Positions 7,112-64,000 of a stretch of 64,000 nt of DNA are shown here, one piece after another. Location of the stretch: NCBI GenBank assembly GCA_964421045.1, contig CAYQVF010000009.1, positions 4,380 to 68,379 of the forward strand. Direction: 5' to 3'. The translations under genes were made by a program, and so were the position numbers. Below the pieces are notes generated by a model, which saw nothing but the letters and a program-made list of their open reading frames with translations, was not told the DNA's origin and did not search any database. Numbering within the stretch: position 1 is the stretch's first letter; the number at the start of each line of letters is the position of its first letter. The DNA comes from an uncultured Chromatiaceae bacterium. Its GTDB lineage: Bacteria > Pseudomonadota > Gammaproteobacteria > JAADHS01.

Positions 7112-10105
7112 TTAGTCCCTGTCGCCACACAAACTTTGGTTATCACAATGTATGCGGGCGTTAGAAAAAGACATTTTCATTTTAATGGCATTGGGGTATG
7201 GGTAGGCTATTCCCGCAGCGTTTATATTAAGATCATAACTGCCCAGAGGCATAAACCGGGGGAAAATAGCTTTAAACAGATTTTTATTCACCTGATCAGG
7301 AATGAAGTTCACTTCGGGTAATGGCTTCAATGCAGTAATCATCGTATTTCCGGCGAGATAAACTGCGTCAACTCCAGGCCAAAACCGGGTCAGTTGACCG
7401 ATTAATGGGTACTCAACCTTCAGCTTTAATTCAGGAGCAGAATATTCTAACAACGAGCCTGACGCAGCGAGAGCATATAGTTCCCCCTCAGCCAGGCTCA
7501 AATCGGTAATGGACTCATTTAACTTGATTTTATTCAGCAATGTTAAACCTGTACTCGTTAAGCGATATAATCTTAAATACTTATCGTTTTGATAGGCTAC
7601 GAGTTGATTTGAGCGAACACTAATCAAGTTTGCGGCAACAGGAAGGTCGTATTTTTTTACTAGTTTCAAATCGGAGTCAAACACCATCAATCCCGCTTCA
7701 GCCTGCTGTAAGGCAACGTATAACTTATCTGAATACCCAGCAATATCGTTAACTATGCCACCAGACCACAGGACTTGACTCATCTTTTTCCCGCTCACAT
7801 CAACACGAAGAAGCGCTTGCTCAGCTGTGATGATAAAAATGGCGTACTCACTAAGTATTATTTTTTTTGGATTAACACGCAATTCAATATGTCGCAATGC
7901 ATGAGCCTGGAAAGGATTGCTGATGTCTATTTCAGTCAATAAACCCGCATCAGAAATGACATAAGCTCGTGTCTCATTAATGGCAATCCCGACGCTGTTT
8001 CCAGGTAAATCAACACCGGTCACCCAGGTTGGGTTGAGCGGGTTTTTATTATCAAATACTTGCACCCCCCCTTCTCCATTTGCACTATAAAGATAATGAC
8101 CTTGCTCAACGACTTGCTCAACCACGCCACGCTCATGATAGCGATCTTTCAATGTCAATTTTCGGGGATTGCTAACATCAATCGTAACGACCCCACCCCA
8201 CCAGTCCATAACAAAAAGATGACCCTTATTATAAGCCAAGCCCCAGGCGGCACCGCTGGTATCATAACTGCCCAACAAACGCAGTGTGTTCACATCACTG
8301 ATATCAACAACATGAACACCGGCCAACCAATCTGCGATATAGGCATAATTCTCATGCAGATCAATGCCCCGTGCATTACCTGGCGTAGCCAGCATCGCCA
8401 AAAGTTCAGGCCTAACCGCATCTGCCACGTCAATAGCCATCAGCCCCTGGTCAAAAAAAGTAACGTAGGCAATATTATCTCTAACCCGTACATCTTCCGC
8501 TCGACCTTCAGGGTTAAACTGCCCCAGCAAACCGGGATGGCTGGGTTCGGTCACATCATAGATCAACAATCCCGCTGCATCATCCGCGATATAAGCTTTA
8601 TGATCCACGACATCGATCCCCCATGACATCCCTGGTGTATCAATATGAGCGATGATACTGGGTTGCAGTGGATTGCTGATATCGAGTATTTGGAAACCGC
8701 CCTGATGACTGGCCAGATAAAGATGATCTCCCACAATTTTGGGAATATAAGCCAAACCCGGTGTTAATATATGCGCTGCGTATTTTGGCTGCTGCACGTT
8801 GTGTACATCCACAATATGCAAGCCGTGATCATCATCGGCAATATAGGCATAACCGGCTTTGACAACCACGCCTTTTGGCGAACCCGGCGTATGATAACTG
8901 GAGATCAGTTTAATCCGTGCGGGATCACTGATGTCATAAATATGCATGCCTGAAAACCAATCCGCAACATAAGCAATATCATCTTCAATAAAAAGACGGC
9001 GCTCACCACCAAAGTTCACCCCTTGACCTGAGTCTAAACGTTGATTAGTCAACTGCGGAGGCGTAGCAGAAAAGTCTATTTTTTTTACACCACCTTGCTG
9101 AGCAATAATAATATCGTTATTATGCATGGCCAGCTCATAAATTGAACCTTTTGCATCATATACCGAGATGGTGGTTGGCATCATAGGTAAAGCAACATCA
9201 ACAACAATCACCTCCCCTTCCAGGTTGTAAAGCACCAGACGATCTTGAGCGAGATCTAATTGTAACTGGCGCACCGCTCCCAAGCGGCTATGGCTACCTA
9301 ACCAGCTCAGTTGTCCATCGGCCTGCAAACCAAGAATAAGGACACCACCCGCCCCTAAGGCAACATAGACATAAGTTCCGCCCATTTTAATATCGTAAAC
9401 AGGTAAAGAAACATGATAAGACCCCTGGTATTTTGCACCCTGCGCACTGAGCAAGTAGTACCTGATTTCTCCAGACTCAGTCACAACAAGGAGTGTATTG
9501 TCATTCACTGTAATCATATCAGCAGACTGTTCCGTCACGATGACATGGGGCTTGATCTGTTCTGTTACTGTCGTATCAAAGCGAACCACTTCTGCATGGT
9601 CCGTGGTGACATATAATTTTCCACCCTCAATAATCGCATGCTGAATCCTGGCACGACCTTGATACTGTGCCCGTAAAGCTAACTGCCCACCATCGAGTAC
9701 ATCATAGGCGGTAATATCGCCATTCGTCGTGATGACAAATAAGACATCATGACTCATCCCGACCCATTGGTATTTAGCTTGTGCTAATGTCGCTCTCTTT
9801 TTTCCTGAGTCTAAATCTCGAACCTCGAGTTCACCCTGCTCTGTAATAACAAAAACATAGTCATCAGAGACAGTCAAAAACTGCGCCTGATAAGGCAATG
9901 CAAATTTACCTACCAGCCTAGCACCACCCGGATGAAGCGTGATATTGTCCACGTTTTTTTTAACTTCTACAGCCACTGTAGTCTGTTTACCATATGAAAT
10001 AACAGCCGGATCCAGTTGCTTCAGCAACCCCGAATCAGCATTCAGGCTGCTCGCCCCTAAAAATAAACAAAGACTCCCTGAAATGATTTTAAGTTTATCT
10101 ATCAT
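7112..10105 (-). CDS. Large secreted LVIVD-repeat (beta-propeller) protein
   Basis: 997 aa with a signal peptide ([23 protein letters not shown]). It has at least 8 tandem repeats of the LVIVD type (YAYIADDDHGLHIVDVHN, AYIADDAAGLLIYDVTEP, AYIADWLAGVHVVDISDVN, LFVMDWWGGVVTIDVSNP, AYVADWFSGMHIYDISDP, LYLASHQGGFQILDISNP ...). Its start overlaps the stop of the upstream histidine kinase gene. Confidence 0.7.
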   Translation of the reverse strand: MIDKLKIISGSLCLFLGASSLNADSGLLKQLDPAVISYGKQTTVAVEVKKNVDNITLHPGGARLVGKFALPYQAQFLTVSDDYVFVITEQGELEVRDLDSGKKRATLAQAKYQWVGMSHDVLFVITTNGDITAYDVLDGGQLALRAQYQGRARIQHAIIEGGKLYVTTDHAEVVRFDTTVTEQIKPHVIVTEQSADMITVNDNTLLVVTESGEIRYYLLSAQGAKYQGSYHVSLPVYDIKMGGTYVYVALGAGGVLILGLQADGQLSWLGSHSRLGAVRQLQLDLAQDRLVLYNLEGEVIVVDVALPMMPTTISVYDAKGSIYELAMHNNDIIIAQQGGVKKIDFSATPPQLTNQRLDSGQGVNFGGERRLFIEDDIAYVADWFSGMHIYDISDPARIKLISSYHTPGSPKGVVVKAGYAYIADDDHGLHIVDVHNVQQPKYAAHILTPGLAYIPKIVGDHLYLASHQGGFQILDISNPLQPSIIAHIDTPGMSWGIDVVDHKAYIADDAAGLLIYDVTEPSHPGLLGQFNPEGRAEDVRVRDNIAYVTFFDQGLMAIDVADAVRPELLAMLATPGNARGIDLHENYAYIADWLAGVHVVDISDVNTLRLLGSYDTSGAAWGLAYNKGHLFVMDWWGGVVTIDVSNPRKLTLKDRYHERGVVEQVVEQGHYLYSANGEGGVQVFDNKNPLNPTWVTGVDLPGNSVGIAINETRAYVISDAGLLTEIDISNPFQAHALRHIELRVNPKKIILSEYAIFIITAEQALLRVDVSGKKMSQVLWSGGIVNDIAGYSDKLYVALQQAEAGLMVFDSDLKLVKKYDLPVAANLISVRSNQLVAYQNDKYLRLYRLTSTGLTLLNKIKLNESITDLSLAEGELYALAASGSLLEYSAPELKLKVEYPLIGQLTRFWPGVDAVYLAGNTMITALKPLPEVNFIPDQVNKNLFKAIFPRFMPLGSYDLNINAAGIAYPYPNAIKMKMSFSNARIHCDNQSLCGDRD

Positions 10106-12513
10106 TATATTTTTTCGGTAAGCAATAACTCTGCAGCCCCAGTCAAGCCATCCATGACGGTATAAAATTCATTATTGAAAGAGTCGAGTAACTCTGCGTA
10201 GGGAAGCCCTTCGAATAATGTTGCTTCCAGTGCTTCTATTTTTTTTGATAATTGAGTGGCACCCAAGCTAGCGGCAACACCACGCAGTGTATGCAGGAGA
10301 TGACGCACCTGTTTATCCTCTCCCAGGTTTAATGCCTTTGCCAACACGTTGGCATCATCACCATGATCCCTCACAAACTCTCTCAGCAGTTTACAAAACA
10401 ACTTGCGGTTTCCTCCGACTCGCTGCAAGCTTTCATTGATATCTATACCCGGCAGAGCGTTAAGAAAACGATCAGCTACATCAATATCTTGTTCATCATT
10501 ATTTTCCCAAGAATGCAGTTCATTGGACGATAAAGCCATCCATTTAGTCAACGTGGCATATAAAATATCAGGATCAATCGGCTTGGTAATATGATCGTCC
10601 ATTCCAGCCGCTAAAAATTTTTCTCTGTCACCGGACATGGCATGAGCGGTCATAGCAATAATAGGCAGTGTTTTACAATACACATTTTTACGGATGAGAC
10701 GGGTCGCCTGATACCCATCCATCTCCGGCATCTGTATATCCATCAGCACTAAATCAAATGTTTTTGCACGCACAGCCTGAACAGCGAACACGCCATTATT
10801 GGCAATTGTTACCCGTACACCCGTCACTTCAAGGAGCTCTTGAGCCACTTGTTGATTAATGCTGCTGTCCTCCACGACCAGTACGCGAACGCCTCTCAAG
10901 TCAGGCACTCCCCCCTTTTTCAATAATAAATCTTGTTTTTCGACGCCTTTATGAAGAGAGTGAGAACATTCAAATTCAGCATTAAAAAAGAAAGTGCTAC
11001 CCCGACCAGGCTGGCTTTTAACACCCAATGCCCCATTCATCATAATCACCAGTTGTTTGCTAATCGCCAGGCCCAAACCCGTGCCGCCATAATTTCTTGT
11101 CGTCGAACCATCGGCTTGAATAAAAGGTGCAAACAAAGCATCGGCCTTGTCAGGCTCAATGCCTATCCCGGTATCTTTTACCGAAAAATGTAACACGACC
11201 CGTTCTTCTTCTGTCTCCTGTATTTTTACAGATACATGAATATAGCCTTGTTCAGTAAACTTCAGCGCATTGCCAACAAGATTAATTAATACTTGTCCCA
11301 AGCGCAGCGAGTCTCCCACCAGGACCGCAGGAATTTTTTTGTCAATGTCATAATTCATGACTATCCCTTTTTCTGCCGCGTCTACCGACACCAAATTAGA
11401 AAGATGATCGAATACACCTTGCAAGGAAAAATCAGTTTTTTCTATTTCCAGGTGACCCGCTTCTATTTTTGAAAAATCAAGAATGTCATTAATAATACCC
11501 AGCAATGTCTTGGAGGAAGTCTGAATTTTATTTAAATAATCACTCTGCTTCGGCGTCATTTCAGTTTTAGTCGCGAGATAAGCCAAACCCATAATGGCAT
11601 TCATTGGGGTACGAATTTCATGGCTCATATTGGCGAGAAACTCACTTTTGTAACGGCTTGCCTGCTCGGCCTGTTCTTTGGCCTCCACCAGTTCCAATGT
11701 CCTTTCAGAAACCGTGTCTTCCAGTTTATCATGGGCTTGTTGAAGCGCGGTTTCAGCACTTTTTCTCGCTTCTTGCTGATGCTGGATGCGCACCAACATA
11801 TGATTAAATGCTTCGTACAAACGACCAATTTCATCTTGCGCAGGGTGGTGCACCCGCCGACTGTAATCCATATTTTGAGAGATATCATCAGCAACGCCAG
11901 CCAGCGTTAAAATCGGTTTTGAAATCACGCTCTGCAGGGCATTGGCTAACAAATAGGCCAGGGCGATTAAGAACAAAGCCGTAAACAATAGAAAAAGTCC
12001 ATATTGCCGTCGTTTATCATCGAGCTCTTTAGTGGAGAGTAATAAATAAATGCTGCCGTAGTCACGCTCCTGATAGCGAATGGGTTTAATAACATGTAAT
12101 TTGTTATCACGAAATTCGGTAAGATCATTTGTTTCAGAATGAATCATCCGGTTTGCGGCTTGTTTAACTAGTAAATCCACTGAGCTTTGGGATTTTGGAA
12201 CCGCGACATTATGCAAACGAGTGAATAATTTCCCTTTTTTGTCATACAAAAAAGCCTCTTCCACTGCCGGTGTACGCAGCAATCCAGAAAGCGTTTCCCG
12301 CGCGGCTTCTTCATCGCCAAAAAAAAGATCGGAAGCGGCATACCCCCCCACAGTATGGGCTGTAATCACCGCATTATCCAACATATTTTGCTTAAAAGCC
12401 TTCACATCCGTAAACATGACAAAACCCAAGCCCAAACTGACGACGGGAATAACCACGGCAAGAATGACAATAATGATTCTGTGGCGCAAAGACAGTTGGG
12501 CCAAAGACTTCAT
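10105..12513 (-). CDS. Hybrid sensor histidine kinase/response regulator (TM-periplasmic-TM, HAMP, HisKA, HATPase, REC, Hpt; BarA/GacS-type architecture)
   Basis: H-box [13 protein letters not shown], an HATPase region ([22 protein letters not shown]), a REC domain ([10 protein letters not shown]...[15 protein letters not shown]...TAHAMSGD) and a C-terminal Hpt ([12 protein letters not shown]). The N-terminus has two TM segments flanking a periplasmic domain of about 150 aa. Confidence 0.85.
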
Positions 12514-13046
12514 TTTTTTTCGCGACCTGTTGAAGACATCATGATCGCCAATTTAAGTAATCTTGAACTGATTTTTAAACCCACCGTTTCCGCTGCCTGC
12601 TGATTGATTTCAAAATGGAGTTTATTATTTTTACGAATAAAATTAATCATCACACCTTGATGAGCAAAGCCAGGGGTATCACTAATGGTTAATACCGGAC
12701 GATTTTGTAATGAGACAAGAATGCCCTCTAGAGCCTTGTGTTGTGTTTTTTCGATAAACAACATATCGCAATCGACAGCAGATTCAGAGCGACTCATTTG
12801 GGTAAATAATGTCGGTCTACCGTTAATGGCCAAAGATTCCAGTTTTTTCAGTTCACCTTTAAATAAATTTTTTCCAATAATGCATAATTGAAAATGCCCT
12901 TTTGAACCGCCCGGCCATTCAACAAAACGAGTGAATTTTTCCATAAACGCCGCTTTTAGTTCATACTCACTCACGCCCCCCCATGCAGGCAATGAAAAAC
13001 TTAATAGCAGCAATATCGTCAGTACACGCTTCAACAGCATTTCCAT
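12510..13046 (-). CDS. YfiR-like periplasmic protein (DUF4154)
   Basis: 178 aa with a signal peptide. The C-terminal [42 protein letters not shown] is characteristic of DUF4154/YfiR. It overlaps the kinase start by 4 nt and is 1 nt from the TBDR stop. Confidence 0.65.
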
Positions 13047-13047
13047 A

Positions 13048-15198
13048 CTAAAATTTATAATGCAATGTGAAACTCAGCAATCTTCCTGGCTGAGGTGCTT
13101 CGAGAAAAGTGACTTGAGTTGTACCTTCTGAAACATTGACATATTTTTTATCAAATAGATTGAAAATATCTGCTTTAATAGTAAAACGATCCGTGAGTTT
13201 GACCTGACTGTGTAAATCTATCCGGTAATAAGAAGGAATACGCAAACGTTTGGTGCTGTCATTGGGGGTTTTTTGTTTGTGTTGAGTCGAACCCACCCAA
13301 AATAATTTCGGTGTTAGCAAATATTTATTGTGATAGTCCAGGGTCATGCCAGCAATAAACTTGTATTTAGCAGTTAAAGGTAATTCAGAATCCCCCTCCC
13401 CCTCTTTTAACTGACCTTCAATAAAGCTGACATTCGCCCAGCTTTTCAACGTTGTTTTGTTCGCTAAAATAGATTCATTTGCAACACTCACGTCAATGCC
13501 ATAGCTTGTTGAATCTGCCATATTTTTCGATTTTTGTGTCCGCAATATCTGAGCACCCGGAATCGCTTGATCCGGTGTCTCATCCGCAGCGGTCTGTATG
13601 ATGTCAGAGACTGAAATATAATAAGAAGCCACTTTTAAATGTGTATGCTCATCAAACCAATGCTCATAATTCAATTCAAAAGTTTTTGCTTTTTCAGGCT
13701 TGAGATCCGGATTAGGTACCTGGAAGAAATCGCCTATCCACGCCCCATTACTATTTTTTTCGCCGCTAAAACCACCAAAGTGGCGAAACATTTGATCCGA
13801 TGACGGCGCGACAAAAGCATGGCCATACAATATTTTAAATACATTGCTTTCATCGTATTTATAAATGGCGCTGATACGCGGATTACGAGTTTTACCATAC
13901 AATGAATTATTATCATAACGTAGCCCGATGACCAACCGCCATTGCGAGTTAATCTCCCAATTATCTTGTAGATAAACGCCATAATTACGATAGCTTCTGG
14001 CAAAAAAAGCGATGGGGATATCGGTATTTGGATAGGTCAAAGTTTGTTCATCAGGGCTTTTTGACGTGTCGTAGCGTGCAGGTAGATCAGCGCCTACCGG
14101 TATGACGTCAAAATAATCAAAAACCAGACCTCCTGACAAATGATGATTTTGATTAAACTTGAATTCAAAATCCTGATTCAATGACACACGGTCACTGTTT
14201 CCATATTTGTAACCCGGTTTAAAGTCTGTGAATCTATTGTTGTAATAAGTATTATTTTTCAACTCATAGTTCATTGCATTAAGCAAAGTGTTTACTTTAA
14301 ACCCGGAAAACAATTCTGTTTGATAGCGCACATAAAAATTGCTCAGCCGTACTCTTTCTTGTGCATCGACATCAAACGCACTGCTTGACGGTAGCGAAGA
14401 AAAATCGTGACTATACGAGTAAGCGCTATGATTAAATCCAACTTGCCAATTTTGACCGAGACTGATGTTGCCCAGCAAACTGTAGTTTCTTGAATTAGCA
14501 AAGCGATAGCCTTTAGACGGATCGTCGTATAGCTCAGGGAAATCTTTATCAAATTCAAAATTTTGTGATTTATAAGCCTGCACACCCAGGTTAAGGTGTA
14601 CATTATCCTTTATATTATGACTGAGATGAGCGTATCCATATCGATAGTCATCTTGACCGGCGGTGACTGAAATATCAGCGACATTACGCTCGTCACTGTC
14701 CATAGTAATAATATTAATCACACCCATGAAAGCATCAGCACCATAAGAAACGGAAGCCGGCCCCATAAGTACTTCTATTTGTTTGGCGTAGTAAATAGGG
14801 AAATTTTCAAAAATAGCTAGTCTTTCACTTGCCGGTGCACTGATACGTACACCATCCTGCAAAAAAAGAAACTTGTTATTACCCACGACACCTCTTGTCG
14901 TAATCAGATTATAAGAAGCTTGCGCCGAAAAATTTTGCATTTGAACACCGGGCAAACTTTGCAGAATATCCAGCAAGCTGGTATAGCCACGCTCTCTAAT
15001 CTGCTTTTGAGTAAAAACATGAATATCTGCTGGTGTATCCCGTAGCTTTTCTTCGTATTTAGATGTCGTACTGATTTCAATATTCATCAGCTCTTGTAAC
15101 GACAGTTGACGAAGACCTTCAGAAATATCGGCTGACAGTGGGCAAGGAATAATACAGATGGCAACTACAATTAGTTTTCGTCTGAAATAGCCATCCAT
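13048..15198 (-). CDS. TonB-dependent outer-membrane receptor
   Basis: 716 aa with an N-terminal plug region (DTPADIHVF...GVQMQ, MGPASVSYGADAFMGVINIIT). The protein is beta-rich throughout and has a C-terminal aromatic (…LHYKF) typical of TBDR barrels. Confidence 0.8.
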   Translation of the reverse strand: MDGYFRRKLIVVAICIIPCPLSADISEGLRQLSLQELMNIEISTTSKYEEKLRDTPADIHVFTQKQIRERGYTSLLDILQSLPGVQMQNFSAQASYNLITTRGVVGNNKFLFLQDGVRISAPASERLAIFENFPIYYAKQIEVLMGPASVSYGADAFMGVINIITMDSDERNVADISVTAGQDDYRYGYAHLSHNIKDNVHLNLGVQAYKSQNFEFDKDFPELYDDPSKGYRFANSRNYSLLGNISLGQNWQVGFNHSAYSYSHDFSSLPSSSAFDVDAQERVRLSNFYVRYQTELFSGFKVNTLLNAMNYELKNNTYYNNRFTDFKPGYKYGNSDRVSLNQDFEFKFNQNHHLSGGLVFDYFDVIPVGADLPARYDTSKSPDEQTLTYPNTDIPIAFFARSYRNYGVYLQDNWEINSQWRLVIGLRYDNNSLYGKTRNPRISAIYKYDESNVFKILYGHAFVAPSSDQMFRHFGGFSGEKNSNGAWIGDFFQVPNPDLKPEKAKTFELNYEHWFDEHTHLKVASYYISVSDIIQTAADETPDQAIPGAQILRTQKSKNMADSTSYGIDVSVANESILANKTTLKSWANVSFIEGQLKEGEGDSELPLTAKYKFIAGMTLDYHNKYLLTPKLFWVGSTQHKQKTPNDSTKRLRIPSYYRIDLHSQVKLTDRFTIKADIFNLFDKKYVNVSEGTTQVTFLEAPQPGRLLSFTLHYKF

Positions 15199-57277: not shown

Positions 57278-57913
57278 TTATCCAACTATGTCCAATTCAC
57301 GGCGTCTAAAGTTCACACCCAGCTTATTAGCCATATTTTCACAGGCTTGGATATCGACTCCTTGCAAACCATTGATGGCGGTAACACTTACATCGGGCAC
57401 ATATTGTTTTGCTAACCTGACGAACTCCAGCATGGCTTGATAGGAACCATCAAGCTTGGGTCGGCAATGTTGATTGTAAAGGGTTTCATTATGCGCATTC
57501 ATTGAGACTGATAGACTGTCGATTAAGCCGTGCATTTCTGATGTCACGTCACGGGCGTGTACCAAATTCGCCAAACCATCCGAATTCAAACGTATTTTTG
57601 CGCCTTTTAGCTTGAGTGCTGTCGCTATTTCAATCATCGTATCCCAGCGTAGTGTGGTTTCTCCTAAGCCACAAAATACGATTTCGTTGTAACGACCCGG
57701 ATCGCCTGTTGCGGTGAGAATTTCTTCAGCGCTGGGCTCACGGCGAAGACGAAGATCAAGACCTTGCACCTCCCAGGTGCCATTAAATTTAGGACAAAAT
57801 GCGCAACGTAATGTGCATTGATAAGTGATGTTTAAATATCGATTGCCGTGCAAAGTATAAGCTAAGGTTTCTTGCTGACTTGATATCGCTTTTTCAGTAT
57901 TTTTTTTATTCAT
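57278..57913 (-). CDS. Small radical-SAM protein (CxxxCxxC), function unknown
   Basis: 211 aa with the motif QCTLRCAFCPK (C-x3-C-x2-C). It has a glycine-rich segment (IVFCGLGETTL) consistent with SAM binding. It overlaps the upstream 258-aa gene by 4 nt. Confidence 0.6.
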   Translation of the reverse strand: MNKKNTEKAISSQQETLAYTLHGNRYLNITYQCTLRCAFCPKFNGTWEVQGLDLRLRREPSAEEILTATGDPGRYNEIVFCGLGETTLRWDTMIEIATALKLKGAKIRLNSDGLANLVHARDVTSEMHGLIDSLSVSMNAHNETLYNQHCRPKLDGSYQAMLEFVRLAKQYVPDVSVTAINGLQGVDIQACENMANKLGVNFRRRELDIVG

Positions 57914-58686
57914 TTTTGTCGTAATCGCAACTGCACTAATTTGGTTTGATACCGCGAAATATCTTTAGCTGCACGTTTATAAACTGATCGCAAATGCGAT
58001 TTTAAGTGTGGTGTAACTTGCTTTGTTGGTAGTGCTTTCAACGCCGCAAACAACGCCAAGGCATAAATCGCTTCATCTTGAGATAAATATATTTCTCGCT
58101 CCACTTTTGGCCCTGAACATTTACCGCAGCCCCCCCTAAAATGATACGCGGTATTAGCAAATAACACACCAAACCCCAATCTAATCGCAAGCACCTCCAT
58201 CGCATAACCATATGCAGCCTGACCACCAGGGGGTTCAGTTTTGGCCATTCCACCTAAGTAAAATGCTAAGACACTGGCATAGTGCGCGATAAGCGTATCT
58301 GGTGTGCCGACTTGCCCGGTATGGTAGGGAATCACTGGCAGCGTTATTTTTTCATTCGATTGTGGCGTTGTTGATAGCTCGGAACTCAGAATTGAAGCAA
58401 CACTGGCCGTATGATTCAAGCCATCCTGAAAACCGTGTTGATCTACTAATTGACAAGGCCAATGACTAAGCCCCGCATATTTTTGTACTTGTCGAAAAAT
58501 CAGCTCCGCCATGGCTGCAGCACTGTCGGCATTGCCGGGGAAAAATTCGTTACTCGGCACCACCAACACCGACTCCTGATTGATAACATTGGCATCAAAC
58601 TCGGCTAAAGACCAGTCAAAAACATCGAAAACCCAAACAGCAGTGTCCTCATCGACAACAGGCCTGCTTTGTAAAAATTCCAGCAT
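57910..58686 (-). CDS. Hypothetical protein (258 aa), translationally coupled to the radical-SAM gene
   Basis: A long ORF with no family I recognise. It contains HFRGGCGKCSGP near residue 180. Confidence 0.45.
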   Translation of the reverse strand: MLEFLQSRPVVDEDTAVWVFDVFDWSLAEFDANVINQESVLVVPSNEFFPGNADSAAAMAELIFRQVQKYAGLSHWPCQLVDQHGFQDGLNHTASVASILSSELSTTPQSNEKITLPVIPYHTGQVGTPDTLIAHYASVLAFYLGGMAKTEPPGGQAAYGYAMEVLAIRLGFGVLFANTAYHFRGGCGKCSGPKVEREIYLSQDEAIYALALFAALKALPTKQVTPHLKSHLRSVYKRAAKDISRYQTKLVQLRLRQK

Positions 58687-58900
58687 ATTGTGTTCTTTTT
58701 TTCTGTATAATAAGTCAGATTTCGGAATTCAAATCTACGTGTGTTGAATAAACGGCAAAATGAAATAATATATCGTACTCATATTACGTACTTATGTCCG
58801 TTTTTTCATGTCGAACGGTAAAAAACCATGCAAATACAATCATGACTTAACTCTATCTTAAAATCTATTTATCAGAAAGCACTTAAATCTAATCCAGAAT

Positions 58901-59269
58901 ATGGCAAAACAATTATTTAAGCTACGAAACGTTCCTGATGATGAAGCCCATGAAGTTCGCACGCTATTGGCAGAACATGATATCGATACATACGAAACCA
59001 CATCGGGATTTTGGGGAACCGCAGTCCCTGCCATCTGGCTTAGAGACGAAGCTCAACTTGAAGCAGCAAAACAATTAATCGAGACTTACCAACAAAAGCG
59101 ATCCACTACAGCGCGTTTGCACTATGAACAACAGTGTAAAGAGGGAACAGCAAGATCAACCCTGGATATTATAAAAGAAAACCCCAGTAAATACGGACTT
59201 TATATTTTAGGAGTTCTTGCCGTTCTTTATTTTAGTTTCGTCCCCTTATTTAACTTACTATACAAGTAA
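58901..59269 (+). CDS. Hypothetical protein with C-terminal TM helix
   Basis: 122 aa with a soluble N-terminal domain and a hydrophobic C-terminus (LYILGVLAVLYFSFVPLF). Confidence 0.4.
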   Translation: MAKQLFKLRNVPDDEAHEVRTLLAEHDIDTYETTSGFWGTAVPAIWLRDEAQLEAAKQLIETYQQKRSTTARLHYEQQCKEGTARSTLDIIKENPSKYGLYILGVLAVLYFSFVPLFNLLYK

Positions 59270-59288
59270 AAACCACAAGAAGAAAAAC

Positions 59289-59708
59289 GTGCTGACATTA
59301 TTCCTTATTATTCACTTCATCGGGCTATGTATTGGTGTGGGTGCATCCCTCTGCAATGCCCTTTTAAATCTATACCTGACACAGCAAAACAAGGGAGATA
59401 TTCCACAAGAAACCAGAAGCATTATAACATCATATTTGTTTCATCTTGGTATCATAGGGCTGGCTCTGCTCGTCATATCCGGAATAGTACTTATGGTCTT
59501 TTACCACCCTTTCGTCACTCTGTCTTTTTTATTTTGGCTAAAACTATTTGTAGTTAGCATTTTAATTGCCTTGATTTACCAGGCAAAACAACTCTTTAAA
59601 GAACCCAACCCAAGCCATCGTACAGTGACACAACTGACACGTATCCGTCTATTTAACCCCGCCCTGTCTCTCTCTATTGTTATTTTGGCTGTATTAGCTT
59701 TTCAATAA
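59289..59708 (+). CDS. Hypothetical integral membrane protein (about 4 TM)
   Basis: Probable GTG start at 59289 after AAGAAG. It is about 139 aa and hydrophobic throughout. Confidence 0.4.
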   Translation: MLTLFLIIHFIGLCIGVGASLCNALLNLYLTQQNKGDIPQETRSIITSYLFHLGIIGLALLVISGIVLMVFYHPFVTLSFLFWLKLFVVSILIALIYQAKQLFKEPNPSHRTVTQLTRIRLFNPALSLSIVILAVLAFQ

Positions 59709-59776: not shown

Positions 59777-59971
59777 TTAATTCTGTTCGTCTATCCATGC
59801 CGCTTGGATGGCTTCTAATAATTTCTCTCCAGAACGCTGGGGATCACCCCGAAAATCTTCCAGTTTACAGACCCATTGATGCAAGTCGGTAAAACGCACA
59901 TAACGAGCATCGACATCAGGATATTGGTCGGTGAGTGCGATTGCAATGTCATGTAGGTCATTCCACTGCAT
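59777..59971 (-). CDS. iscX: Fe-S cluster assembly protein IscX (YfhJ)
   Basis: 64 aa and collinear with E. coli IscX (..[24 protein letters not shown].. vs DARYVRFTDLHQWVCKLEDFRGDP). Confidence 0.85.
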   Translation of the reverse strand: MQWNDLHDIAIALTDQYPDVDARYVRFTDLHQWVCKLEDFRGDPQRSGEKLLEAIQAAWIDEQN

Positions 59972-59973
59972 GA

Positions 59974-60312
59974 TTATTTCCCTTCAGAGACCATATTAAT
60001 TGTATATTTTGGAATTTCGACAACCAGATCTTTATTGCTGACAACGGCTTGACAACTCAATCGTGAATCCGGCTCCAGACCCCATGCTTTATCCAATAAA
60101 TCATCTTCAAGTTCGGTTGCTTCCGCAAGAGAGCCCCCCCCCTCACGAATAATCACATGACAGGTTGTACACGCACATGATTTTTCACAAGCATGTTCTA
60201 TTGATAAGCCATTCTGCAATGCCGCATCACATATCGTTACACCCGGCTCAGCTTCAATCACGGCACCTTCCGGGCAAATTTCTTCATGAGGTAAAAAAAT
60301 AATCTGTGTCAT
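59974..60312 (-). CDS. fdx: [2Fe-2S] ferredoxin of the ISC system
   Basis: 112 aa with the Cys pattern [11 protein letters not shown]...C of adrenodoxin-type Fdx. It lies between hscA and iscX. Confidence 0.88.
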
Positions 60313-62186
60313 AGGTCTATCTCTTCAACCCGATGCCCCTTGAGCGCAGCCTGCATACTAGAATCCATTCGCCTTGCTGCAAAAGTCATACTGACCTCAT
60401 TCAAGGTGGCGATTAATTCTTTTATATGCAGATGATCATCCCCCATCATGTTATCAGATAAATTCTGCATAGCCTGCAAAATAAGCTCTTTTTCTTGGCT
60501 TTCTAACAAACGTTCACCATCCATAGTAAGGGCAGCTTGTACTGACTCGAGCAAACGTTCGGCATCTAATTGCTGCTCTTTTAAGAGCCGACTCGCTACA
60601 TCGTCAGAGGCATGCGCTAAAGAATCATGTAGCATCGCGGCGATGTCTTCGTCCGTTAAACCATAAGACGGTTTCACTTGAACACGACTTTGTACACCAC
60701 TGGTTAATTCTTCAGCACTCACACTCAACAAGCCGTCCGCATCCACTTGAAAGCTGACTTTGATTTTAGCAGCACCAGCAACCATTGGGGGAATACCATG
60801 TAAAACAAATTGTGCAAGTGAACGGCAATCATCAACCAATTCTCTTTCACCTTGTACGGCATGTAATTGTATGGCCGTTTGGCCATCTTTGAAGGTCGTA
60901 AATTCTTGTGCTCTGGCAACAGGAATAGGCGTGTTACGAGGAATAATTTTTTCTACCAAACCACCCATAGTCGCGATGCCCAAAGACAAAGGCGTGACAT
61001 CCAGTAACAATAAACCCGCCGCGTTATTGTTGCCAACCAACTGATCTGCTTGACGCGCGGCACCCAAAGCAACCACTTTATCTGGATCAAGATCGACCAG
61101 GGGTTGGCATTCAAAAAAAGTGCCCACTGCGTTGCGAACCAGCGGCACACGGGTGGCCCCCCCCACCATCACCACCGCCTTAATCTCATCCAGTGTGATT
61201 GAGGCATCTTTGAGCGCCCGTCGACAGGGTAGCAAGGTACGCTGAACTAAGGTCATAACCAAGCCTTCAAAAACCTCGCGAGTCAATACACCATGCCATG
61301 AAATTTTCTCTTCATATTCAATGTTGATATCCACTTCACTACGCAGCGTTAATAACTCTTTCGCAGAGCGAGCCTGTTCTGTAAGTGTACGCAATAATTT
61401 GTGTTCCAGCTTATTCGCCAAACCCGCTTGCTCTATCAGCCATTCGGCAATAAGCTGATCCATGTCATCACCACCTAATGCAGAGTCACCCGCCGTCGCC
61501 AGCACTTCAAAAACCCCTTTATTCAGCTGAAGAATAGACACGTCAAAAGTTCCGCCGCCTAAATCATAAATAACATGGATACCCTCATTTCCCTTTTCCA
61601 GGCCATAGGCGACGGCAGCGGCAGTCGGCTCATTTAACAAGCGTAAAACATGAAGTCCAGCAAGCCGTGCGGCATCACGAGTTGCTTGACGCTGAGCATC
61701 ATCAAAATAAGCAGGAACAGTAATCACCACGCCTGACAATTCGCCACCCAGCGCTTCTTGTGCTCTGTCGCGCAGCACCTTGAGTATTTCAGCAGAGACT
61801 TCAACAGGACTCACCTCGCCTAGCTCAGTATTAATACGCGGCATGCCGGCATCGGCATCAACAAACTGGTAAGGCAAGTGGTTGGCGGTATGACTCACGT
61901 CCGCCAAGCCGCGTCCCATTAACCGCTTAACGGAAGCAATAGTATTCAGCGGATCAACCACTGCTTTGGCTCTGGCAATACCGCCCACTTCAATACCCGC
62001 CTCTTTACTGTAGCGAACAACCGACGATAACAAGCTTTGCCCATCACTATCAGGTAATATATCAGGGATACCACTGCGTACCGTGGCCACCAAAGAGTGA
62101 GTTGTTCCGAGATCAATCCCCGCTGATAAACGGTGTTGATGGGGGGCTGTGGATTGCCCAGGCTCAGTAATTTGTAATAACGCCAT
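60309..62186 (-). CDS. hscA: Fe-S cluster biogenesis Hsp70 chaperone HscA
   Basis: 625 aa with Hsp70 motifs ([12 protein letters not shown]; [12 protein letters not shown]; [10 protein letters not shown]). It overlaps fdx by 4 nt. Confidence 0.95.
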
Positions 62187-62195
62187 AATACCCTT

Positions 62196-62729
62196 TTAGG
62201 TTAACTCCAATACTTCGTCATGCAACTTCGAAAAAAATTGATATTTATCTAACAGGCTACTTGCTTTTTTGGCATTTTTTGTCTCATTCACATGCTGAAA
62301 ACAGGCACTCAAATCTGTCAAAATAGTCTGTTGCTGTGCTTCAATTTTGTCTATAAATGTTATTAACCTGGCCATCTCTATGGGGCTTGTTTTTTTAATT
62401 TCGTCAAACTCTTCCCGTAATGACATTTGTTCCAATAATAAGGCGGTGTCTTGTACCGTATGAGTAGGTTCGCCGACATCATCTATTAACAAGCTTAACA
62501 AGTAACGCCCCCGTTGCAACGGGTCTTTCAGGGTCAAATAAGCTTGATTAATCAATGCCGAAAATTGCACCGCTAAACGCCGTTCCTGCGCTGTACCTCC
62601 GGCATACTGATCAGGATGCGCTGAGGCTTGCAGATGCCGGTAACGAACGCTTAAAGTCGGGAAAGAGAGGTCAAACTGAAGCGGAAGATCAAACAATTCG
62701 AAATAGTTTTTTTGCAAAAAATCAGTCAT
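62196..62729 (-). CDS. hscB: Fe-S cluster co-chaperone HscB
   Basis: The start is probably the Met at 62729 (MTDFLQKNYFELFDLP). It has a J-domain with HPD (AHPDQY) and a C-terminal helical domain. Confidence 0.85.
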   Translation of the reverse strand: MTDFLQKNYFELFDLPLQFDLSFPTLSVRYRHLQASAHPDQYAGGTAQERRLAVQFSALINQAYLTLKDPLQRGRYLLSLLIDDVGEPTHTVQDTALLLEQMSLREEFDEIKKTSPIEMARLITFIDKIEAQQQTILTDLSACFQHVNETKNAKKASSLLDKYQFFSKLHDEVLELT

Positions 62730-62736
62730 ATCTTTA

Positions 62737-63060
62737 TTAGATACTGAAACTTTCACCGCACCCACATGTATCTTTCACATTAGGGTTGTTAAATTTAAAG
62801 CCTTCATTCAAACCTTCACGACCGTAATCAAGCTCGGTACCGTCAAGATAGAGCAAGCTTTTTGCATCCACAATTACTTTAACGCCCTGATCTTCAAAAA
62901 CGGAATCGTCTGTTTCAATTTCATTGACAAACTCCAACACATAGGCCATACCCGAACAACCCGTTGTTTTAACGGCCAAGCGCACACCCACACCATGACC
63001 TCTGGCCTCCAGGAAGGACTTGACTCGATCTGCCGCCGCCACACTCATAGTTATCGCCAT
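62737..63060 (-). CDS. iscA: Iron-binding A-type carrier IscA
   Basis: About 107 aa and collinear with E. coli IscA ([12 protein letters not shown]...[14 protein letters not shown]). Its start lies 2 nt after the iscS stop. Confidence 0.88.
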
Positions 63061-63062
63061 GC

Positions 63063-64000
63063 TTAGTGCGCTGCCCATTTAACTTTTGAGAGGTCTACGC
63101 CGTCTTTATACATATCCCATAACGGTGACAATTCACGTAATTTTGCAACCCGTTCGCGAATTAAATTGATGATGTAATCCACTTCTTCAGTTGTTGTAAA
63201 ACGACCTAGGGTAAAACGCAATGAGCTATGCGCAAGTTCATCACTACGGCCAATAGCACGCAGTACATAAGAGGGCTCCAGACTGGCAGAAGTACAAGCT
63301 GAACCCGACGACAGCGCAATATCCTTTAATGCCATAATTAATGACTCACCTTCAACATAGTTGAAGCTGATATTCAGATTGCCGGCGACTCGCTGCTCTA
63401 AATCACCATTGACATAAATTTCTTCCATATCGCTTAAACCATTATAGAGCCTATCCCTGAGAGATTTTAGACGAATATTTTCCGTTGCCATTTCTTCTTT
63501 TGCAATGCGAAAAGCTTCGCCCATACCCACAATTTGATGGGTCGCCAAAGTCCCTGAACGCATTCCTCGTTCATGTCCACCACCATGTGTTTGTGCTTCA
63601 ATCCGTACGCGCGGTTTGCGTCGAACATAAAGTGCACCGATACCCTTAGGTCCGTAGATTTTATGTGCAGAAAAAGACATTAAATCAACTTTCATCTGCT
63701 GCAAGTTGATGTCTACTTTTCCTGCGCTTTGTGCGGCATCAACATGAAACAAGATACCCCGTTCCCTGGCCATTTCGCCTATTTTAGTAATGTCCTGGAT
63801 CACACCAATTTCATTATTAACATGCATAATAGAGATCAATATTGTATCGTCCCTGATCGCCGCAACCAGTTTTTCAAGATCTAGCAGACCATTAGTTTCA
63901 GGATCAAGATAACTCACATCGTAGCCTTCTCGCTCCAACTGACGATAGCAATCGAGCACCGCTTTATGCTCAGTTTTTAAAGTGATGAGGTGCCGTCCTT
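63063..64000 (-). CDS. iscS: Cysteine desulfurase IscS (C-terminal ~310 codons; the gene continues past the window end)
   Basis: It has a PLP site ([17 protein letters not shown]), the active-site loop ([21 protein letters not shown]) and a C-terminal ...VKWAAH. Confidence 0.92.

Follow-up and report, generated by a model that had tools for sequence, protein, structure and literature searches.

The 64,000-nucleotide (nt) window analysed here, a stretch of contig CAYQVF010000009.1 from an uncultured Chromatiaceae bacterium, ends within a genuine iron-sulfur (Fe-S) cluster assembly (ISC) operon, iscR-iscS-iscA-hscB-hscA-fdx-iscX, which has every defining ISC feature except the scaffold gene in the operon. 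The gene in question, iscU, was deleted in place. The resulting architecture is widespread, and both the retained genes and the IscU-binding surfaces of their products have been conserved. In our opinion, the system is likely functional, its canonical iscU copy having been deleted and an IscU-type scaffold being supplied in trans from an unlinked gene. To our knowledge, the standard view of the ISC system regards IscU as the obligate scaffold and recognises no other established client for HscB and HscA. No description of an ISC operon that keeps hscBA without iscU, and no publication on the accessions studied here, was found in the literature searched.

The first-pass annotation of this DNA had reported that iscU is missing from its canonical position and that iscA follows iscS after 2 nt; direct reading of the sequence bears this out. 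On the minus strand the junction reads ...AAA TGG GCA GCG CAC TAA gc ATG GCG ATA ACT ATG AGT..., that is, IscS ends in ...VKWAAH, the stop codon TAA occupies positions 63063-63065, and the ATG of iscA lies at 63060. In canonical operons iscU (about 390 nt, plus two spacers) occupies the site of this 2-nt spacer, and nucleotide alignment with relatives shows that the whole iscU region has been deleted at this point. Thus, no scaffold gene is present between iscS and iscA in the window. Neither tblastn with Escherichia coli IscU nor a six-frame hmmsearch with an IscU profile detects any IscU-like sequence in the 64 kilobases (kb) of the window, and no IscU/NifU_N signal is present in the 9-10 kb upstream of iscS or in the approximately 10 kb past the window start. 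The possibility that iscU simply lies immediately upstream of iscS, as a variant of gene order, is disposed of by the genes found there, which run suhB (on the opposite strand), trmJ, cysE, iscR, iscS, iscA. Given the 2-nt gap, and since no clear Shine-Dalgarno sequence is seen, translation of iscA is probably coupled to that of iscS through termination and reinitiation.

The first line of evidence on the origin of this junction comes from relatives. A search of a large protein collection with HscA places the window in an isolated lineage, with identities of 100%, 93%, 83% and 82%, followed by values of 66% or less. The locus at 93% (L004, from the metagenome-assembled genome (MAG) JAADHS01) has the same gene order and the same 2-nt gap, and its IscS and IscA carry the consecutive GenBank accessions NOY71790 and NOY71791. 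In the loci at 83% and 82% (L007 and L008), iscU is also absent and a 109-nt spacer separates iscS from iscA; the spacer holds a 20-codon open reading frame (ORF) beginning MAYSD or MDYSD. According to the nucleotide alignment, L007 and L008 still carry the spacer between iscS and iscU, followed by the first 15 nt of iscU itself, ATGGCTTATAGCGAC, which encode MAYSD. Compared with the start of iscU in L014, ATGGCATATAGCGAT, this remnant has 2 mismatches in 15 nt and specifies the same five residues. Past the remnant the coding sequence is lost, and the sequence resumes with a resemblance to the iscU-iscA spacer of L011. By our own estimate, the chance of encountering M-A-Y-S-[D/E] at that site is about 1e-5. 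An intact iscU of 125-132 amino acids (aa) is present in the neighbours L011, L012, L014 and L135, the first three of which come next in a neighbour-joining tree of HscA that carries no support values; the cultured Thiohalobacter sp. IOR34, taken from the HscA match list, likewise has a full-length iscU in a canonical operon. The remnant in L007 and L008, together with these iscU-bearing neighbours, establishes that the ancestor had iscU at the canonical place and that it was removed by an in-place deletion.

A different form of iscU is found in L009 (MAG GCA_947259325.1), the nearest outgroup by identity (66% in HscA). Here the gene (L009:6691-6906) is internally deleted and encodes 71 aa, which align as far as ...ARLKTYG and then end, so that Cys63, LPPVK, His105 and Cys106 are all lacking. 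Either the gene records an early and independent step towards loss of iscU, or the MAG is misassembled here. Judging from the sequences, the truncated gene (L009), the vestige (L007 and L008) and the clean junction (the window and L004) can be read as stages of loss. It should be noted that the L009 gene also has a GTG start and the changes G38A and F58L at conserved positions, and that its apparent sister L011 has an intact iscU of 125 aa.

The second line of evidence is the spread of the architecture, which had been taken for a peculiarity of one lineage and is instead widespread in marine Gammaproteobacteria. An earlier scan of a genome collection with an HscB query had given 3 loci. Metagenomes were scanned with a pattern composed of the IscS C-terminus WAAH-stop, 0-30 nt, and the IscA start M[AS][IV][TS]..., which amounts to about 41 bits by our own estimate, with less than one chance match expected; at least 119 contigs with an iscS-iscA junction were found. 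By tblastn, every one of these loci has the order iscR-iscS-iscA-hscB-hscA-fdx-iscX, either complete or ended by the contig edge. None contains IscU by tblastn, nor does the IscU profile find it across their 671 kb, where, among the matches listed, no IscU/NifU_N-like ORF lies in or beside the operon. Also among the matches listed, GC content ranges from 30 to 66%, IscS is 60-82% and HscA 61-67% identical to that of the window, and the most frequent iscS-iscA gaps are 13, 9, 10 and 12 nt. In a neighbour-joining tree of IscS the listed loci form a large radiation, inside which the window's clade is located and in which the iscU-bearing L012 is interspersed. Within this radiation of marine Gammaproteobacteria iscU was apparently lost more than once, and such repeated loss suggests that the operon copy had become redundant.

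Some of these loci can be linked to known organisms. The 90% IscA cluster of L089 includes proteins from the cultured Thiogranum longum (WP_455233985.1; Chromatiales) and from a closed MAG of 2,446,898 bp (UCE76441.1), both tied to the iscU-less locus by IscA clustering; L055 matches IscA from Thiogranum sp. MAGs. L104, with 30% GC, belongs to an abundant pelagic group that is represented in Tara Oceans data; its IscA cluster has 93 members, with contigs as long as 870 kb. Among the 120 best matches to HscA of the window, at least 5 stem from iscU-less loci, and four of the five non-clade contexts inspected directly are canonical; therefore, the iscU-less form is a substantial minority and no rarity.

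The third line of evidence is the state of the remaining components. The rest of the operon had been described as intact, and this description holds: NCBIfam models recognise IscS, IscA, HscB, HscA, the ISC ferredoxin and IscX, each with the score of a full family member (Table 1). IscS is a pyridoxal phosphate-dependent cysteine desulfurase whose Cys328 loop is identical to that of E. coli, as in IscS-type enzymes; its full length of 404 aa is seen in L003, one of three identical contigs (L001-L003) in which iscR precedes the gene. IscA, when aligned with its E. coli counterpart, retains Cys35, Cys99 and Cys101 in the motifs GCSGMAY and CGCGESF of an A-type carrier, and HscB of the window carries HPD along with the IscU-binding patch (L92, M96, F153, R99 and E100). 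HscA, the ISC ferredoxin, IscX and IscR all have the features that define them in an ISC system. IscR, a protein of the Rrf2 family encoded directly upstream of iscS in L003, shares 60 positions that are invariant across five iscU-bearing comparison sequences.

All retained isc genes are under purifying selection. Ratios of nonsynonymous to synonymous substitution rates (dN/dS), computed by the Nei-Gojobori method within the iscU-less clade (Table 1), are low in the pairs L003-L004 and L007-L008, in which both members are iscU-less and dS is 0.2-0.5, as well as clade-wide, where dS is above 1. Since the low values hold both in these pairs and in the clade, the chaperone arm has been kept by selection long after the loss of iscU.

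The fourth line of evidence concerns the surfaces that would contact IscU. In HscB, the binding of IscU depends most on residues L92, L96 and F153 and less on R87, R99 and E100 (Fuzery et al., PMC3040723). Among the matches listed, 89 HscB sequences from iscU-less operons have a median identity of only 38% to HscB of the window; nonetheless, HPD, L92 and E100 are conserved in 100% of them, position 96 is M, I or L in 100%, position 153 is F or Y in 100%, and R99 and E97 are conserved in 97%. Such conservation of L92, L96 and F153 is equalled by only 1.6% of random residue triplets, and the states of the binding residues match those of seven iscU-bearing operons. On the side of IscS, IscU docks on α8 (residues 309-316), E347 and α12 (379-391), and deletion of residues 376-404 abolishes IscU binding (Shi et al., PMC2854127). 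In 81 IscS sequences from iscU-less operons among the matches listed, α8 and E347 are 100% conserved and α12 is 91% conserved. The conservation of these contact residues in both proteins suggests that an IscU-type client is still present. Of 262 HscA positions with at least 95% conservation in 116 outgroup proteins, 257 are retained. The exceptions include two substitutions in the substrate-binding domain, V437A and V534L/M/I in E. coli numbering, which occur in all four clade members at positions that are invariant in those 116 proteins.

In the mechanism that we favour, the role of the ancestral canonical iscU, which was removed by deletion in place, would most likely be taken by an iscU paralogue or an IscU-like domain protein encoded at an unlinked site, and the rest of the machinery would operate as in the canonical system. 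Sulfur would be mobilised by IscS, which IscX would modulate, and electrons would come from Fdx. HscB would recruit the cluster-loaded scaffold and hand it to HscA for ATP-driven release, and IscA would carry the clusters onward. Of the two alternatives proposed in the first-pass annotation, namely a relocated iscU or a different scaffold for HscAB, the first is favoured in the broad sense of an unlinked IscU-type client by the conserved HscB and IscS surfaces, with the gene itself not found; the second is the rival discussed below.

Several observations weigh against scaffold supply in trans. An unlinked IscU-type gene was not found in the 64-kb window, in the approximately 10 kb past each of its ends, or in the flanks of the at least 119 loci. 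None of the 120 closest among thousands of IscU homologues is assignable to the long contigs carrying the iscU-less operon, and the two whose context was inspected belong to canonical operons of other organisms. The conserved surfaces of HscB and IscS are indirect evidence, and a different partner or a structural constraint could also account for them. Finally, the changes at V437 and V534 of HscA could hint at a changed client; they may equally be a minor retuning, or meaningless.

Two kinds of candidates for a substitute were tried and rejected. Clustering of the non-isc ORFs of the at least 119 loci for a replacement gene that travels with the operon gave no conserved extra gene within or downstream of it; the non-isc ORFs that are conserved in these loci are upstream housekeeping genes, namely cysE, trmJ, a 173-aa ORF and a GlcD-like oxidase. 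Other ORFs with the HscA recognition motif LPP[VIL]K amounted only to out-of-frame chance matches.

The rival explanation that survives best is that there is no IscU-type scaffold, the clusters being built most plausibly on IscA, its translation now coupled to that of IscS, or else on a SUF- or Nfu-type scaffold, and HscBA being kept to act on that other client; we consider this unlikely. In vitro, IscA is able to build clusters with sulfur supplied by IscS, and its gene stands directly after iscS, with a gap of 2 nt here and mostly 9-13 nt in the other listed loci. IscA is nevertheless without distinctive changes, as the window's clade departs from the iscU-bearing comparison set at only 2 of the 54 positions that are invariant there, and it lacks the LPPVK motif. 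The absence of IscU-like sequence from the window and its flanks and from the 671 kb of the at least 119 loci agrees with this rival, although the flanks cover a small fraction of each genome, so that absence there says little. Repeated loss (the vestige in L007 and L008, the truncation in L009, and the nested position of the iscU-bearing L012) and the clade-unique V437A and V534 changes in the substrate-binding domain of HscA also speak for it. Against it stand the IscU-binding residues of HscB, which are among the most conserved of a fast-evolving protein and have the same states as in iscU-bearing operons, and the conserved IscU-docking helices and C-terminal tail of IscS.

Much less probable still is that the operon is a decaying remnant, in which de novo assembly has moved to, for example, SUF, sulfur trafficking (tRNA thiolation, thiamine, molybdenum cofactor) is the only reason for keeping IscS, and the loss of hscBA, fdx and iscX is under way. 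ISC and SUF tend to be mutually exclusive in Gammaproteobacteria (PMC10631705), which we counted in favour of decay, as we did the pseudogene-like intermediate in L009, with iscU as the first component lost. Decay would be expected to produce frameshifts, truncations or relaxed selection; instead, the genes are intact in four clade members and in at least 119 further loci, dN/dS is 0.02-0.09 for hscA, fdx and iscX over dS above 1, and the catalytic and binding motifs are invariant.

The idea that an assembly or sequencing deletion of about 400 bp at 63060 created the iscS-iscA junction, for which no supporting evidence was found, has a negligible probability and fails against the identical junction in GCA_006243085.1, SRR14803397, SRR6439371 and the second species L004, the graded remnants in L007 and L008, the at least 119 independent metagenome contigs, and the canonical iscSUA recovered from the same sample series. 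The first three of these sources, the latter two as Logan assemblies, contain contigs that match the window at 100% identity over stretches of as much as 11 kb and were retrieved through an exact match to its IscA. A different organism, with a normal iscS-iscU-iscA, is present in the project's sister assemblies (VAPL, VAPM and SRR6439370); thus, the pipeline recovers iscU when it is present.

Comparison with known systems places the operon closest to the canonical gammaproteobacterial iscRSUA-hscBA-fdx-iscX of E. coli (reference locus L010), with which it shares genes, order and the upstream suhB and trmJ. IscS, with 404 aa, has a Cys328 loop and a C-terminal tail motif identical to those of E. 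coli, and the three cysteines of IscA and the HPD motif and IscU-binding patch of HscB are also shared. The window differs from E. coli in the lack of iscU, in the 2-nt gap between iscS and iscA, where E. coli has about 430 nt containing iscU, and in cysE, which in the window organism is inserted between trmJ and iscR. The minimal two-gene iscS-iscU or nifS-nifU systems (for example, Helicobacter NifSU and the archaeal Methanosarcina IscSU; PMC7585200) are likewise reduced yet functional; however, these ISC- and NIF-like systems keep the desulfurase and the scaffold and dispense with HscBA, Fdx, IscX and IscA, whereas the operon of the window is the opposite case, with the scaffold alone missing. 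In SUF (sufABCDSE), as here, an A-type carrier gene stands beside the core genes, and the operon does not encode IscU as its scaffold. Unlike in SUF, there are no SufB, SufC or SufD genes in or near the locus, and HscBA is not part of SUF.

What emerges is a widespread natural class of ISC operon that has lost iscU while the IscU-interacting partners stay tightly constrained. If the scaffold is unlinked, its expression is separated from the IscR-controlled operon, which raises the question of why this arrangement is recurrent. The more radical proposition is that no IscU-type scaffold exists anywhere in a large marine gammaproteobacterial radiation (including this organism, the cultured relatives of Thiogranum longum and the abundant pelagic group) that keeps IscS, IscA, HscB, HscA, Fdx and IscX under strong selection, with IscA or an unrecognised protein acting as both scaffold and HscBA client. 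We regard it as doubtful; should IscU truly be absent, however, these organisms would be a natural experiment on whether an A-type carrier or some other protein can act in vivo as the scaffold and as the client of the chaperones. IscA clustering at 90% or above with an iscU-less locus suggests Thiogranum longum as a culturable model. In addition, automatic pathway calls will mark such genomes as ISC-incomplete, and may be wrong in doing so.

Table 1. The isc genes in the window, with the models that recognise them and their dN/dS within the iscU-less clade
Feature	Description	Position	Strand	Basis	dN/dS
iscS	cysteine desulfurase; 3' 936 nt, C-terminal 311 aa, cut by the window end	63063..64000	-	NCBIfam NF010611, 579 bits	0.03-0.05
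iscS-iscA spacer	2 nt (GC) between iscS stop and iscA start	63061..63062	-	direct reading and nucleotide alignment with relatives	
iscA	A-type Fe-S carrier, 107 aa	62737..63060	-	TIGR02011, 176.6 bits (cutoff 150.6)	0.02-0.06
hscB	J-type co-chaperone, 177 aa	62196..62729	-	NCBIfam HscB models	0.11-0.23
hscA	Hsp70-type chaperone, 625 aa	60309..62186	-	NF003520, 958 bits; TIGR01991, 878 bits	0.06-0.09
fdx	ISC-type [2Fe-2S] ferredoxin, 112 aa	59974..60312	-	TIGR02007, 181.6 bits	at most 0.04
iscX	64 aa	59777..59971	-	TIGR03412, 109 bits	0.02-0.06

The start of hscB is ambiguous. The ATG at 62729 gives the 177-aa protein of the table, which aligns with E. coli HscB; the alternative GTG at 62765, which is the choice of the gene callers, gives 189 aa and a 29-nt overlap with the 3' end of iscA. 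IscA of L008 (L008:8950-9273) reads TTVCSGMACFLEF, with three substitutions beside the Cys35 ligand relative to all the other sequences; these could be genuine or stem from an error in the MAG. In many relatives, whether or not they have iscU, a NifS-like second cysteine desulfurase of 377-381 aa is encoded between iscR and iscS (L005:6738-7886, L012:2316-3449, L135:5794-6939 and about 25 of the loci L016-L134); this gene is absent from the operon of the window.

The organism itself recurs at 100% nucleotide identity over overlaps of 2.3-11 kb in contigs (L001-L003 and L136-L138) from GCA_006243085.1 (VAPK), SRR14803397 and SRR6439371, and its exact CzcB protein is also present in SRR6439370. 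Metagenomes of hydrothermal and marine-sediment origin (JGI 3300003886 and 3300003885) contain related loci. The rest of the window consists of chromosomal housekeeping genes, among them ftsK, lolA, serS, cysG, aroC, lon, ppiD, gshAB and selO; no SUF or NIF genes or other Fe-S systems are present in it, and beyond the window end opposite to iscS only a CzcCBA-type efflux system was found.

Immediately downstream of iscX, in the region 57278-59708, a plus-strand DUF6164 gene and a plus-strand membrane ORF of 139 aa are followed by a minus-strand pair that overlaps by 4 nt and encodes a 258-aa protein without a Pfam match and a 211-aa radical S-adenosylmethionine protein; this neighbourhood is not common to L007 or L008. 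Farther away, a minus-strand cluster at 7112-15198 encodes a 997-aa LVIVD-repeat β-propeller protein, a BarA-like hybrid histidine kinase, a YfiR-like periplasmic protein (TOL_0243 family) and a TonB-dependent receptor.

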